From: Candidatus Shapirobacteria bacterium | GTDB lineage: Bacteria > Patescibacteriota > Microgenomatia > UM-FILTER-40-11 | Length of the DNA stretch: 61,862 nt | Reading direction: 5' to 3' | Assembly (NCBI GenBank): GCA_020059745.1 | Contig: JAGVBK010000003.1 | Coordinates: forward strand, 134,492 to 196,353 | Made by a program: the position numbers and the translations under genes | Notes under the pieces: model-generated | Told to the model about the DNA's origin: nothing | The model's input: only the letters and a program-made list of their open reading frames with translations | Database searches by the model: none | In this document: positions 8,317 to 22,893 of the stretch, one piece after another | Numbering within the stretch: the first letter of the stretch is position 1 | How the letters are laid out: every line of letters starts with the position of its first letter

Positions 8317-9853
8317 TTTTAAGATAATTATCATACTATTTTTGAGTTTATTTCTTAGATTGGCAAATTTAAACCAATCTCTTTGGCTGGATGAGGCAGT
8401 TCAGGCGATAACAGCCAAGGAAAGCTTTGGTTATATTTTTCAGGAAATAGTTGGAGATTTTCATCCTCCGTTGTATCACTTTTTAATGCATTTTTGGGTT
8501 AGAGTATTTGGCAGCTCTGAAATTGCCCTAAGAATACCTTCTGTAATTTTTGGAGTATTAACAGTTTGGGTAGTTTACAAAATAGCCCAGGAGTTATCGG
8601 TTATCAGTGGTCAGGGGTCTGTAGGCGGAAAAATACCGACAACCGTTAATCGATCACTAGCCGCTATTGCCGCTTTGTTTATGGCAACCGCGCCTTTCCA
8701 TATTTATTACTCTCAGGAAGCAAGGATGTACAGCATGACTTGTTTTTTTGCTTCTCTTTCGATGTATTACTTTTTAAAGGTAATCGGTGATCGGGTATCA
8801 GCGACCAGTGAAAAACCGATTACCAGTAGCAGACTCCTGATGGCTGAATATTTAATTTCCTCAGCCTTGCTAATTTATTCTGATTATTATGGCTTTTTAA
8901 TAGTTCTGTCTCAGGGAATTTATTTATTAATAAAAAGAAAATATAAATACTTAATACTCAACACCTTCTTCTTAATACTAATTTTTGTGCCTTGGTTGCC
9001 TATGTTTTTAAAACAAGTTAATGCAGGGATAACGGCTACTCATATTCTTCCTGAATGGGGGGAGCTGGTAAACCTTAGTTTTTTTAAGGCCTTGCCTCTC
9101 ACTTTTGTTAAGTTTAGCCTTGGTAGAATTACGATTTTTGACAAAAGGCTTTACTTTGCAATTTCTTCTCTGTTGGTTGGAATTTATGGCTTTTTTATCA
9201 TAGGAGGCTTTAGTTATCAGTTATCCGTGATCAGAGATCGGTATTTAGCTATTGAAAAAAAAAGACAGATTACTGGTAACTGGTCACTGATTGCTATTTG
9301 GACTTGGTTTTTTGTGCCATTAATTTTAGCTTGGGGTGCATCTCTTTTTGTGCCCAACTACCAGCCTTTTAGATTACTTCTGATCATTCCTGCTTTTTAT
9401 CTTCTTTTAGCTTTTGGCATAAGCTCTTTTAAAAATAAAACTGTTCAAATAGCACTTTTTAGCTTTGTTGTTATAACGAACCTTCTTTCGGCTTCTTTTT
9501 ACTATTTTAATCCCTTTTTTCAGCGCGAAGACTGGAAAGGAGTGGCGGATTATGTGATTAGAAAAAATGCCTTGGCGGTTCTCCCTTCAGAAACATCGTT
9601 TTGGCCCCTTAGGTATTATGATTCCCAGAACAAAATTGAGATTGCTTTTGGGAGCAGGGGGATAGAAAAGGTTGGAAGTAAGCCTTTAAACATAGCTAGT
9701 TCAGAAAAAGTTTTCTATATTAGATATCTGGTTCCGCTCTTTGACCCTCATGAAAAAATCCTCAAACATCTTGAAGAACTTAACTATAGTAAAATTAAAG
9801 AAACTAGTTTTAACCAAATTCCCGTTTGGGAATACCAAAGGAGTAACCAGTGA
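8294..9853 (+). CDS. GT-C fold membrane glycosyltransferase (GT39/PMT_2-like) carrying three in-frame heptad-repeat insertions
   Basis: Motifs LWLDEAVQAITAKE and HPPLYHFLMHFW in a multi-TM protein. Peptide blocks ELSVISGQGSVGGKIPTTVNRSL, VIGDRVSATSEKPITSS and YQLSVIRDRYLAIEKKRQITGNWSLI are encoded by heptad-periodic DNA. The stop TGA lies inside a heptad (ACCAGTGA). Confidence 0.85.
   Translation: MKTFLKINFKIIIILFLSLFLRLANLNQSLWLDEAVQAITAKESFGYIFQEIVGDFHPPLYHFLMHFWVRVFGSSEIALRIPSVIFGVLTVWVVYKIAQELSVISGQGSVGGKIPTTVNRSLAAIAALFMATAPFHIYYSQEARMYSMTCFFASLSMYYFLKVIGDRVSATSEKPITSSRLLMAEYLISSALLIYSDYYGFLIVLSQGIYLLIKRKYKYLILNTFFLILIFVPWLPMFLKQVNAGITATHILPEWGELVNLSFFKALPLTFVKFSLGRITIFDKRLYFAISSLLVGIYGFFIIGGFSYQLSVIRDRYLAIEKKRQITGNWSLIAIWTWFFVPLILAWGASLFVPNYQPFRLLLIIPAFYLLLAFGISSFKNKTVQIALFSFVVITNLLSASFYYFNPFFQREDWKGVADYVIRKNALAVLPSETSFWPLRYYDSQNKIEIAFGSRGIEKVGSKPLNIASSEKVFYIRYLVPLFDPHEKILKHLEELNYSKIKETSFNQIPVWEYQRSNQ
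8593..8658. repeat. Heptanucleotide-periodic dyad element A (left arm, A-rich loop, right arm), in frame inside the GT39 gene
   Basis: Left arm gttatcggttatcagtggtcagg, loop ggtctgtaggcggaaaaata, right arm ccgacaaccgttaatcgatcac. The right arm matches the reverse complement of the left arm at most positions. Confidence 0.7.
8779..8845. repeat. Heptanucleotide-periodic tract B with partial dyad symmetry, in frame inside the GT39 gene
   Basis: GGTAATC GGTGATC GGGTATC AGCGACC AGTG aaaaa CCGATTA CCAGTAG... ggtaatcgg and ccgattacc are perfect reverse complements, but the overall palindrome is weak. Confidence 0.55.
9213..9292. repeat. Heptanucleotide-periodic dyad element C, in frame inside the GT39 gene
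   Basis: Left arm gttatcagttatccgtgatcagagatcggtat, loop ttagctattgaaaaaaaaaga, right arm cagattactggtaactggtcactgatt. About 19 of 30 positions are complementary by hand alignment. Confidence 0.7.
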
Positions 9854-10265
9854 CCAGTGATCAGTTGTCGGAAAATATAAAAATAAGAAGCTTTCGAGAT
9901 TTAGAAATCTGGCAGGAAGCTCACAGTTTGGTGGTTGAAATATACAGAATTACTAAGAATTTTCCAAAGGAAGAAATTTATGGGCTGAACTCACAGATTA
10001 GGAGATCAGCTTCTTCTGTTGCTGCTTGTATTGTTGAAGGACACAGCAGGAATACGACAAAAGAGTTTATCAAATTTTTGTATGATGCAAGGGCTTCGGC
10101 AGCCGAGACGGAGTATCATTTATTGCTTTCAAAAGACCTTAACTATCTGAGTGTGGAAATTTGTGAAAATTTTAGCAGCAGGTATCAGATTCTAGGTAGA
10201 AGGATAAATGCTTTAATAAACAGTCTTGATAAAACCGGCCACCGATAACTGGTGGCTGATTACTG
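9845..10265 (+). repeat. Heptad dyad element D whose loop contains the four-helix-bundle gene (IVS-like cargo-carrying copy)
   Basis: Left arm aaccagtgaccagtgatcagttgtcgg (9845-9871). Right arm aaaaccggccaccgataactggtggctgattactg (10231-10265) begins with the same AAAACCG junction seen in the empty elements. The arms are about 17 of 25 complementary by hand alignment. Confidence 0.65.
9850..10248 (+). CDS. Four-helix-bundle protein (23S rRNA intervening-sequence protein family, PF05635/TIGR02436-like)
   Basis: IRSFRDLEIWQEAHSLVVEIYRITKNFPKEEIYGLNSQIRRSASSVAACIVEG...ETEYHLLL is a textbook match to this family. AAGGAG at 9838-9843 lies 6 nt before the GTG start, which overlaps the upstream stop as GTGA. 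Confidence 0.9.
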   Translation: MTSDQLSENIKIRSFRDLEIWQEAHSLVVEIYRITKNFPKEEIYGLNSQIRRSASSVAACIVEGHSRNTTKEFIKFLYDARASAAETEYHLLLSKDLNYLSVEICENFSSRYQILGRRINALINSLDKTGHR

Positions 10266-21959: not shown

Positions 21960-22893
21960 ACTCTCAGTAATTATCTTAAGCTACAATACGAAGGAGCTTT
22001 TAAGGCAATGCCTGGAGTCAGTTACCAGTAACCAGTTACCAGTGACCAGTAAAAGCAAAAAACCGACCACTGATTACCGATCACCGATTACCGAAATCAT
22101 TGTTGTTGATAATGCCTCAAAAGACGGCAGCCCGGAAATGGTGGAAAAAGAATTTCCTCGAGTAGTTTTAGTGTGCAATAAGGAAAATATTGGTTATTCT
22201 GCAGGCAATAATGTGGGGATAAAAATTGCCAAAGGAGATTTTCTTTTGTTTTTAAATTCCGACACAAAAGTTTACAAAAATGCTTTAGCGGAAGCTGTTT
22301 CTTTTATGAAAGAAAATCCCAGGATAGGGGCTTTGTCTGCCAAAACCCTTCTTCCTTCAGGTAAAATGGATCCTGATTGCCACCGGGGATTTCCCCACCC
22401 TTGGGCCTCGCTGACTTATTTCCTCGGTCTGGAGAAAATGTTTCCTAAAAGCAGGCTTTTCGGCCAATATCACAAGTCTTATCTTGGTTTTGACGAAAAC
22501 CACGAAATTGATGCCGGAGCAGGGGCGTTTATGCTTGTAAGAAAAGAAGTGGTTGAAAAAGTTGGCACTTGGGACGAACAGTACTTTTTTTACGGTGAAG
22601 ACTTAGACTTTTTTTACAGGATTAAAAACGCTGGTTTTAAGGTTTACTTTTTTGCCAAGCCTCTTTTGACCCACTACAAAGGAGCAAGCTCTGGTTTGAG
22701 AAAGGAATCAAAAAAAATTAACCGAAATCCTAGGGAAAACAGAATAAAAGTGGCTCAAGCGTCAGTAAAAGCAATGGAAATTTTTTACCGTAAATTTTAT
22801 AAAAATCTCTACCCGGCTTGGGTTACCAGCCTTGTTTTAGGCGGTATAAAACTTAAGGGTTCCCTAAGGGTGTTAAAACACCGCCTAACCTAG
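21946..22893 (+). CDS. Glycosyltransferase family 2 with an in-frame heptad-element insertion (paralogue of 16896)
   Basis: LSVIILSYNT...CLESV[TSNQLPVTSKSKKPTTDYRSPIT]EIIVVDNASKDGS...FLNSDT. Confidence 0.9.
   Translation: MPKPELSVIILSYNTKELLRQCLESVTSNQLPVTSKSKKPTTDYRSPITEIIVVDNASKDGSPEMVEKEFPRVVLVCNKENIGYSAGNNVGIKIAKGDFLLFLNSDTKVYKNALAEAVSFMKENPRIGALSAKTLLPSGKMDPDCHRGFPHPWASLTYFLGLEKMFPKSRLFGQYHKSYLGFDENHEIDAGAGAFMLVRKEVVEKVGTWDEQYFFYGEDLDFFYRIKNAGFKVYFFAKPLLTHYKGASSGLRKESKKINRNPRENRIKVAQASVKAMEIFYRKFYKNLYPAWVTSLVLGGIKLKGSLRVLKHRLT
22019..22093. repeat. Heptad dyad element H, in frame in the GT2 paralogue at the same codon position as element F
   Basis: Left arm cagttaccagtaaccagttaccagtgaccagt, loop aaaagcaaaaaa, right arm ccgaccactgattaccgatcaccgattaccg. 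The loop junction agtaaaagcaaaaaaccg is 17 of 18 nt identical to that of element F. Confidence 0.85.

Follow-up and report, generated by a model that had tools for sequence, protein, structure and literature searches.

Eight tracts of degenerate heptanucleotide repeats, here called A to H, lie in and between glycosyltransferase (GT) genes of a Candidatus Shapirobacteria bacterium. They probably form one family of palindromic cassettes of the type known as intervening sequences (IVSs) in ribosomal RNA (rRNA). The DNA analysed, referred to as the window, is a stretch of 61,862 nt (assembly GCA_020059745.1, contig JAGVBK010000003.1, positions 134,492–196,353, forward strand). D is the complete cassette, in which inverted arms enclose a gene of the PF05635/TIGR02436 family; the rest are gene-less copies or single arms. 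Their arms are tandem arrays with a degenerate heptamer as the unit: left arms have TCAGTNA, right arms the complementary TNACTGA. An earlier note on this DNA had taken the tracts for footprints or small copies of an element that forms hairpins and that the GT enzymes tolerate in their surface loops, which is largely right but lacks the central component. The observations that carry our reading are the architecture of the tracts, the filled, empty and length-variant sites in relatives, the co-occurrence of hairpins with the enclosed gene, purifying selection on that gene and a layout that recurs in many phyla. That the short copies derive from a D-like copy is the step we infer from sequence.

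Heptamer tracts are confined to 14 kb of the window

Heptads were scanned for with the cores RYCRG (left type) and CYGRY (right type) at an exact 7-nt spacing, a run being at least three consecutive heptads and the null being dinucleotide-type shuffles. The window holds ten such runs, all within 8596–22088, against 0.0–0.01 in shuffles. Tandem Repeats Finder reports period-7 arrays at 9212, 9842, 11023, 16974, 17038, 17151, 22019 and 22062; that at 16974 has the unit TCAGTTA in 7.7 copies and also reads as a perfect 14-nt unit repeated 3.8 times. The arrays and runs bear out the heptad periodicity that had been noticed at all eight places. Units are degenerate around the RYCRG core, and TAACTGA-type tandem copies (at least two) are present in the window.

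All eight tracts fall within 14 kb of the 62-kb window. The 25–62 kb part has no comparable runs and its two-heptad matches occur at chance frequency, in agreement with the earlier note. Two such matches, at 58873 and 59414, were considered as a further cassette and rejected, since they lie inside a rodA/ftsW-like open reading frame (ORF) and are at chance level.

Element D encloses a gene of the IVS protein family

Element D occupies the junction between a PMT_2-type and a GT4 glycosyltransferase gene. Its parts are as follows.

9840–10267, forward strand: element D, complete cassette (GGAG at 9840–9843, left arm, inner gene, right arm)
9843–9871, forward strand: D left arm, GTAACCA GTGACCA GTGATCA GTTGTCG G
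9850–10248, forward strand: inner gene of D, PF05635/TIGR02436 by profile searches, 132 aa, 399 nt
10235–10263, forward strand: D right arm, CCGGCCA CCGATAA CTGGTGG CTGATTA C

The two arms pair across the inner gene as a long-range stem of ~29 bp (forward-strand folding, z −2.9), and a mini-hairpin of the arms only has a folding energy of −32.8 kcal/mol. The left arm spans the PMT_2 stop and the start of the inner gene, whose GTG codon overlaps that stop as GTGA and has GGAG 6 nt upstream. The TAA stop of the inner gene lies within the right arm, which is largely untranslated and ends 4 nt upstream of the GT4 start codon.

The inner gene matches PF05635 over profile positions 1–105 of 106 (E 1e-37; 129 bits, cut-off 33.8) and TIGR02436, 'four helix bundle protein', at 121.7 bits (cut-off 24). 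Its nearest solved relative by sequence match is the pentameric protein XCC0516 (PDB 2GSC, E 5.7e-17); PDB 2RLD also matches (E 9e-5). On these profile matches the gene is assigned to a family called '23S rRNA intervening-sequence protein', with a predicted four-helix bundle. As in an rRNA IVS, the insert is enclosed by a long stem that its terminal inverted repeats form. The genes on either side of D code for proteins, and D is not in helix 9, 25 or 45 of 23S rRNA; Rfam finds only a tRNA and no rRNA in the window, and none of 20 homologous loci has an rRNA context.

Two other identities for the inner gene were rejected. The protein shares its four-helix-bundle fold with Avd, the accessory protein of diversity-generating retroelements (PF22296 bAvd, E 9e-8); however, it scores 28.2 bits against NF033474 (cut-off 80), and no reverse-transcriptase domain occurs in the 20 cluster ORFs scanned, template and variable repeats not having been searched for. 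A role in anti-phage defence was dropped because the inner gene has no match in PADLOC.

The inner gene is under strong purifying selection, tighter than its neighbours. Its ratio of non-synonymous to synonymous substitution rates (dN/dS) is 0.05 against the orthologues in two related clusters, L084 and L085 (88% identity to L084). In the same comparison the PMT_2 neighbour has a dN/dS of 0.12–0.18 at 62% identity and the GT4 neighbour 0.08–0.12 at 72%. The GGAG and the GTGA overlap are kept in four orthologues with heptad-overlapping starts, the start in L088 being an upstream ATG. The D arms differ among orthologues yet remain ~75–80% complementary, with one possible compensatory pair (TTGTCGG/CCGGCCA in the window, TTATCAG/CTGATCA in L084).

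The right arm of D ends a few nucleotides before a start codon in the window and in orthologues, which is not so for the seven intragenic tracts. Solitary right-type arrays likewise end ~5 nt upstream of the PMT_2 start in L084 and L085. The position is that published for the TAACTGA arrays of Beggiatoa, and it hints at a role of such arrays in translation re-initiation.

Seven shorter elements lie within four glycosyltransferase genes

The host genes and the elements that they carry are listed below.

8294–9853, forward strand: host gene 1, PMT_2-type (GT-C) glycosyltransferase, 519 aa (Pfam PF13231, E 1.6e-8), carrying A, B and C
8594–8658, forward strand: element A, decayed hairpin; four left heptads (TTATCGG TTATCAG TGGTCAG GGGTCTG), loop TAGGCGGAAAAATA, about three right heptads (CCGACAA CCGTTAA TCGATCA); translated LSVISGQGSVGGKIPTTVNRS
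8781–8848, forward strand: element B, hairpin; four left heptads, loop TGAAAAA, degenerate right arm from CCGATTA; translated VIGDRVSATSEKPITSSRLLMAE
9213–9293, forward strand: element C, hairpin; four left heptads, 25-nt A-rich loop, right arm AGATTACTGGTAACTGGTCACTGATTG
10268–11410, forward strand: host gene 2, GT4 glycosyltransferase (Pfam PF00534, PF13439), GTG start at 10268, carrying E
11024–11053, forward strand: element E, single left-type arm of four heptads, GGTGATCAG TTATCAG TGATCGG TAATCGG, with no partner arm; translated GDQLSVIGNR
16896–17873, forward strand: host gene 3, GT2 glycosyltransferase, 325 aa (Pfam PF00535), carrying F and G
16971–17074, forward strand: element F, best-preserved hairpin; eight left heptads (14-nt TCAGTTATCAGCGA repeated 3.8 times), loop TAAAAACAAAAAA, five right heptads (CCGGTAA CCGATAA CCAATCA CTGATAA CCGAGAT); translated SVISDQLSAISYQRSVISKNKKPVTDNQSLITE
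17140–17171, forward strand: element G, single right-type arm of four heptads, CACTGA CTGCTGA TCACCGA TCCCCGA TCACT; translated SLTADHRSPIT
21946–22893, forward strand: host gene 4, second GT2 glycosyltransferase, 315 aa (Pfam PF00535), carrying H
22015–22097, forward strand: element H, hairpin; five left heptads (GAGTCAG TTACCAG TAACCAG TTACCAG TGACCAG), loop TAAAAGCAAAAAA, five right heptads (CCGACCA CTGATTA CCGATCA CCGATTA CCGAAAT)

The N-terminus of the GT4 protein, MKIGIDISQ, aligns with orthologues. The earlier note gave all eight tracts one dyad architecture, translated throughout, with an A-rich loop ending in AAAACCG. A, B, C, D, F and H do have two arms, whereas E is only left-type and G only right-type. 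Every tract inside a gene is translated, being open solely in the frame of its host; the right arm of D is mostly not. The loop/arm junction AAAACCG of D is shared by B, F and H. The motif AAAACCGRYNAYYR at the loop/right-arm junction occurs four times in the window, in B (at 8812), D, F and H, all on the forward strand, where 0.13 are expected; in D, the supposed loop is the 399-nt gene. Homologous hairpins have loops that are uniformly Lys-rich and then Pro, that is, an A-run followed by CCG, and the A loop GGAAAAATACCG resembles the two inner junctions of D, fused.

In the AlphaFold model of the GT2 protein carrying F and G (predicted local distance difference test, pLDDT, 93), F corresponds to residues 27–58 and extends helix 1 and the coil before strand 2, and G lies between helix 71–81 and strand 91–98 (local pLDDT 74). 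As far as the model goes, both are in peripheral alpha-to-beta connections, where the local pLDDT is 74–80, and so the proposal that the insertions sit in surface loops agrees with the predicted structure. H is at the structural position of F.

Filled, empty and length-variant sites in relatives

The sites occupied in the window vary among relatives. The 120 GT2 homologues compared (identity 50–76%, 282–365 aa) are variable in two loops; many have heptad-type peptides (SVISDQLS...KKKP...ITDNRSLIT) there, others short ordinary loops. An exact look-up of the window's own GT2 sequence found no record of it. The closest relative is L001, whose F is shorter by 48 nt; it has a clean 36-nt gap in place of G and lacks H. 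In other homologues, such as P0010, the G loop holds a full hairpin. The orthologues of host gene 4 in L001 and L170–L173 have an ordinary loop, 14 residues shorter, in place of H.

PMT_2 orthologues differ in their combinations of elements at sites A, B and C, which may be present, longer, vestigial or missing, and orthologues lacking the elements are 460–469 aa long. The hairpins at site A are cleaner or longer in L084, L088 and L089, and there is none in L085, L170 and L171; B is absent in L088, L089, L170 and L171, and C in L089, L170 and L171. E is found in L084 and L085 and is absent in L088. L171 has at site E an unrelated loop of about equal length, and E, standing for at least some copies, therefore looks like an overwrite and not a pure insertion. 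E (11028) and G (17142) were also considered as the two ends of a 6-kb cassette; this was rejected, as G is absent in L001 and E occurs independently in L084 and L085. An extra left-type array near the PMT_2 C-terminus of L084 (4263–4305; YQLPVTGNQK), with an equivalent in L085, marks another site of gain or loss, the window having an unrelated KPLNIASSEK there.

Presence of the hairpins goes together with presence of the inner gene. L170 (GCA_040961635.1) and L171 are fully syntenic but have an empty D site: the PMT_2 and GT4 genes adjoin, overlapping in ATGA, with no inner gene. Neither has any run of at least three heptads in 20.9 kb, and both have ordinary loops at the sites of all seven other elements, A–C and E–H. 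Clusters with the inner gene have 13 (L084), 8 (L085), 3 (L088), 3 (L089) and 10 (window) such runs. The surroundings of 80 distant GT2 genes (29–41% identity, taken from among the matches listed in a metagenome scan with the GT2 alignment) served as a negative control and hold one such run in 410 kb. A synthetic hairpin peptide used as a protein query for other host families gave only two weak matches. These comparisons support the view that the tracts are lineage-specific insertions or overwrites of a hairpin-forming repeat family, and the versions seen in the GT genes of relatives, whether empty, shorter or longer, bear out the claim that copies are tolerated in enzyme loops.

The same comparisons speak against the peptides themselves being functional modules, such as linkers or interaction motifs, with the nucleotide periodicity secondary. 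In their favour, the model has helix 1 continuing into the left-arm peptide of F at pLDDT ~90, and the loops are uniformly Lys-rich followed by Pro. However, orthologues that keep all catalytic motifs have short, unrelated loops, distant GT2 genes lack the blocks, and periodicity and dyad symmetry are properties of the DNA, non-coding positions included. This explanation is largely refuted, and we regard it as very improbable.

Stop avoidance filters the intragenic copies

Because 7 is not a multiple of 3, successive heptads are read in successive phases, and the earlier note held that departures from dyad symmetry map exactly onto the one phase in which a right-arm heptad would read TGA. We counted right-arm heptads inside ORFs, pooling the window and five related clusters. 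TGA occurs in none of 24 heptads in the critical phase and in 14 of 51 in the harmless phases; its replacements in the critical phase are CGA (7), TGG (5), CGG (2) and CAA (1), TGG being that of C. Stop avoidance itself thus holds. The exact mapping was overstated: the C forms (CGA/CGG) also occur in 15 of the 51 harmless-phase heptads. Since an intact ORF cannot hold in-frame stops, stop avoidance acts as a selection filter and is not the sole cause of arm asymmetry.

The reading frames also bear on whether the tracts are contingency loci, in which slippage by one unit shifts the frame and switches GT enzymes on or off, the right arms serving as stop traps. All tracts are in a glycosylation cluster; all three frames can be read through the left arm of F, and right arms have stops in the two non-host frames; and heptanucleotide repeats act in this way in other bacteria, for example NeuO. 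Even so, phase variation is quite unlikely here. No frameshifted allele occurs among the 120 homologues, near-identical strains on three contigs show no change in copy number, most arrays are degenerate and should slip more slowly, and neither the hairpin form nor the arrays around a non-GT gene in many phyla would be explained.

Folding of the hairpins on the two strands

The proposal that the dyads fold as hairpins stands for part of them. On the forward, mRNA strand, F (−26.6 kcal/mol, z −5.0), C (−24.2 kcal/mol, z −3.4), B (z −3.0) and D fold better than shuffles; A (z −1.0) and H (z −1.0) do not, and E and G do not fold. On the reverse strand, F (−43 kcal/mol, z −8.0) and H (−37.1 kcal/mol, z −7.0) fold far better, because the T-to-C changes in their right arms give A.C mismatches on the forward strand and G.U pairs on the reverse.

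An antisense RNA role, suggested by the reverse-strand folding of F and H, was rejected: the effect stems from these T-to-C changes and has no counterpart in a strand bias at 58 loci of the survey described below. There, G.U-compatible mismatches number 121 in sense and 110 in antisense (p = 0.5), and transversions are in the majority.

The same data weigh on the idea that the host selects the stems as RNA structures, either RNase III or stability sites that segment a polycistronic mRNA, with the inner gene released as its own transcript. Precedents exist in rRNA IVS stems with a PF05635-family gene, which are cut by RNase III (PMC4990558), and in Correia elements in mRNAs, which are cut likewise (PMC10969869); D, F, C and B fold well on the proper strand. 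Yet A and H fold no better than shuffles there while F and H fold far better antisense, the mismatches show no strand preference, E and G cannot form stems, and cleavage within a coding sequence would destroy the mRNA. Hairpins in genes are weakened on the mRNA strand, which gives no support to the processing or stability role put forward in the earlier note, and we give this explanation little credence.

PF05635 genes are bracketed by inverted repeat arrays in many phyla

The layout of D is not peculiar to the window. The PF05635/TIGR02436 family comprises 20,729 clusters at 50% identity (E ≤1e-3). We surveyed 80 loci from more than 15 phyla, one genome per species, of which 56 have full flanks. 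A flanking inverted-repeat score of at least 30 is reached at 82% of these 56 loci of PF05635 homologues and at 2% of 224 positional controls (Mann–Whitney p = 1e-26 for the scores). The arms are tandem short repeats, with a period of 7 in 36 loci and 8 in 10; their median length is ~33 nt, roughly five units, and they are close to the ORF, at a median distance of 19 nt (5' side) or 31 nt (3' side). The units differ between lineages, as the following cases illustrate.

CAGCTAT: Methylacidiphilum
GGTCAGC: Verrucomicrobiota
TCAGTTG / CAACTGA: Phycisphaerae
GGGTGTC: Chloroflexota
AGGATTA: several Desulfobacterota and Omnitrophota
TTGTAGG: Desulfobacterales
8-mer units: Flavobacteriales

Four copies on plasmids of cyanobacteria were inspected (L174–L177, from Calothrix brevissima, Nostoc punctiforme PCC 73102, N. 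edaphicum and Anabaena variabilis ATCC 29413). In all four the gene is between inverted tandem heptamers (GGGTGTR, GGGAACA, TCAGRAK), and in two it lies directly downstream of tyrosine recombinase/integrase genes. A Chloroflexota locus has, 1 kb from the gene, a gene-less pair of arrays with the unit of the resident gene. Unit similarity tracks protein similarity (62% vs 42% identity; rho −0.20, permutation p = 5e-4), from which we conclude that arms and gene travel together.

In some loci the upstream arm is very long (1869–2484 in L009, 2145–2379 in L058 and 2349–2478 in L059), with up to ~88 AGGATTA copies in a deltaproteobacterial genome; as the partner arm is short, this looks like one-sided runaway slippage. 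A 'universal stop' logic, with stops in downstream arms and none upstream, was rejected as a general rule: 65 loci show no polarity (30 vs 27), and it holds only for the TCAGTNA-type unit.

The survey tells against the view that the tracts are simple-sequence repeats, with arrays made by replication slippage, inverted pairs by occasional inverted duplication and a gene nearby by coincidence. Slippage has been proposed for heptamers generally (PMC4692102; PMC4679880), including the short tandemly repeated repetitive sequences (STRRs) of cyanobacteria. In the present material it would account for the perfect 14-nt array of F, repeated 3.8 times and typical of recent slippage, for the variation of copy number among relatives and for the single arms E and G. 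It would not by itself make complementary arms on both sides of a gene. Further points against it are the inverted arrays that flank the gene at 82% of loci across many phyla (2% in controls), the loop/arm junction common to B, D, F and H, and the lack of any array in 42 kb of clusters without the inner gene. We consider a purely simple-repeat origin improbable.

Proposed origin and spread of the cassettes

We favour instead an IVS-type cassette with gene-less derivatives, which could have arisen as follows. D would have inserted in an ancestor of a Shapirobacteria-like (Patescibacteria) clade, exactly at the ATGA overlap of PMT_2 and GT4; as it brought its own GGAG and GTG start, translational coupling was preserved with both neighbours. 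The other hairpins (A–C, F and H) would be gene-less copies, consisting of arms and a short A-rich remnant that ends in AAAACCG, and E and G single arms. Local spread of such copies within the operon may have come about by template switching, or by gene conversion of DNA close by, and they would grow and shrink by 7-nt slippage, selection retaining only those in permissive loops that lack in-frame stops and add a length divisible by 3 nt. Clustering of the tracts around D suggests short-range copying, although tolerant host genes could also explain it. More speculatively, the pentameric protein may recognise heptamer arrays, and the stems may be RNase III substrates as they are in rRNA.

Several points weigh against this account. 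D occupies the slot between PMT_2 and GT4 in all contigs fetched for close homologues (L084, L085–L087, L088 and L089; inner-protein identity 68–86%). Because every relative carrying D has it in that slot, it is old and vertically inherited, with no sign of recent movement. The only candidate for a target-site duplication at D is 3–4 nt, (A/G)TGA at both ends, which coincides with the start and stop codons, and none is evident at G in comparison with L001. No transposase domain occurs in the 20 cluster ORFs scanned, nor is a recombinase present; a miniature inverted-repeat transposable element (MITE) would have an autonomous, transposase-encoding relative, and the only enclosed gene is that of PF05635, a family for which we know of no transposase activity. 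Three near-identical contigs from different samples show no heptad indels. Among five orthologous D elements, complementarity between an element's own arms is not clearly above that with partner arms of other orthologues. The co-occurrence of hairpins with the inner gene amounts to five clusters versus two, which are not phylogenetically independent. One shared junction of 7–14 nt is what ties the short copies to D. As for the putative recognition of the arrays by the protein, shared descent alone could produce the correlation between protein and unit similarity.

The surrounding gene cluster

The tracts are set in a co-directional cluster of ~26 kb (1–26200 of the window) with GT-C/PMT_2, GT4, GT2, Wzy_C, flippase, hexapeptide-transferase and TIG-domain genes. 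Clusters of relatives are syntenic with a different gene order, and L170–L173 add a radical-SAM gene. The flippase gene of the window, of MurJ/Polysacc_synt type (5868–7168), is split into two ORFs with a 4-nt overlap, 5868–6359 covering MurJ profile positions 2–133 and 6356–7168 positions 136–404; in related clusters it is a single intact gene of 410–421 aa. The split may reflect a frameshift, decay into a pseudogene or an error in the assembly. A hexamer array (CCAACC/CCGACC, 18811–18846) encodes the linker PTPTPTPTPTPT within the Wzy_C (O-antigen ligase-like) protein at 17848–19308; it is an ordinary Pro/Thr linker with no relation to the heptads.

Comparison with known systems

IVS-type cassettes and TAACTGA-type heptamer arrays are already known. 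The PF05635/TIGR02436 family was first met with in 23S rRNA IVSs; an IVS with an S23p ORF is reported from Leptospira (Ralph and McClelland, 1993), and to our knowledge no function of PF05635/TIGR02436 has been found in the more than 30 years since rRNA IVSs were described. The IVS of Coxiella burnetii 23S rRNA has a 28-bp terminal stem around an S23p ORF and is cut by RNase III at the first repeat; immediately upstream of this ORF there are tandem GACAGAT heptamers, two to three depending on the strain (Warrier et al. 2016, PMC4990558). D is likewise a PF05635 gene between terminal inverted repeats that form a long stem. It differs in its host, a protein-coding operon instead of 23S helix 9, 25 or 45, and in its ORF, which is under strong purifying selection whereas that of Coxiella appears to be decaying. 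The window moreover holds gene-less copies that are translated inside ORFs. A further criterion of rRNA IVSs is that RNase III excises the stem-loop without religation. PF05635 genes have also been found inside cas operons (PMC3936711) and inside rRNA insertions of Patescibacteria (PMC11270868).

TAACTGA direct repeats occur in Beggiatoaceae, Cyanobacteria and Bacteroidetes, where no frame of the forward unit is free of stops, ORFs can contain the reverse unit, and arrays end one to a few nucleotides before start codons (MacGregor 2015, PMC4679880). The window unit TCAGTTA is the reverse complement, and the right arm of D likewise ends near a start; however, the window units are degenerate and arranged in dyads. 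Nearly all arrays in that survey are direct, with one inverted pair in 170 sets; it makes no link to PF05635 and includes no Patescibacteria.

Paired arrays on opposite strands are known as well. Geobacter metallireducens has dozens of paired hepta- or octanucleotide arrays in operons, which were interpreted as regulator-binding sites; one pair is located between proB and proA, and another, with ~100 nt separating its arrays, between moaA and mosC (Aklujkar 2009, PMC2700814). Xanthomonas has 70–75 convergent GGGAATC pairs (Rehm 2015, PMC4692102). The supplement to the latter lists a four-unit GGGAATC array (#15) that overlaps the start codon of XCC0516, the solved relative of the inner protein, by 17 nt and lies 6 nt from bccP, a position on which the authors do not comment. 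Like the window elements, the Geobacter and Xanthomonas arrays have three to five units on opposite strands at variable spacing, in operons and in some cases inside genes. Their units are different, they have been read as regulator sites or G-quadruplex motifs, and no connection with an IVS protein was drawn.

Rickettsia palindromic elements, like other MITEs that insert in frame, offer a precedent for translated and fold-compatible insertions in unrelated enzyme genes (reviewed in PMC10969869). Unlike the window elements, the Rickettsia elements are units of ~150 bp with conserved peptides, no tandem heptamers and no known partner gene, and they have no sequence relation to A–H.

What is new here is the presence of translated copies inside Patescibacteria glycosyltransferase genes, together with filled and empty sites by which the hairpins are tied to the gene. 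Also apparently unreported is a general rule, the bracketing of PF05635 genes by inverted heptamer arrays: in the open literature, to which our search was confined, no paper links the gene family generally to such arrays. Tolerance of translated palindromic repeat DNA in surface-glycan enzymes of Patescibacteria is, moreover, a possible source of rapid envelope variation.

A wider reading is possible but doubtful, namely that the PF05635/TIGR02436 protein and its inverted arrays are a pan-bacterial autonomous cassette whose protein recognises tandem 7-nt units. On the same tentative footing, cyanobacterial STRRs, TAACTGA repeats, Xanthomonas GGGAATC arrays, Geobacter pairs and the intragenic GT hairpins might all be orphan arrays, either non-autonomous derivatives or binding sites. 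If so, rRNA IVSs would merely be the copies that landed in rRNA, and both the over-representation of heptamers among bacterial repeats and the function of the family would be accounted for. That over-representation has been reported separately, and without explanation, in cyanobacteria, Xanthomonas, Geobacter and giant sulfur bacteria. The window and the survey join the two puzzles: the gene is bracketed by arrays, and gene-less arrays occur where the gene is present.

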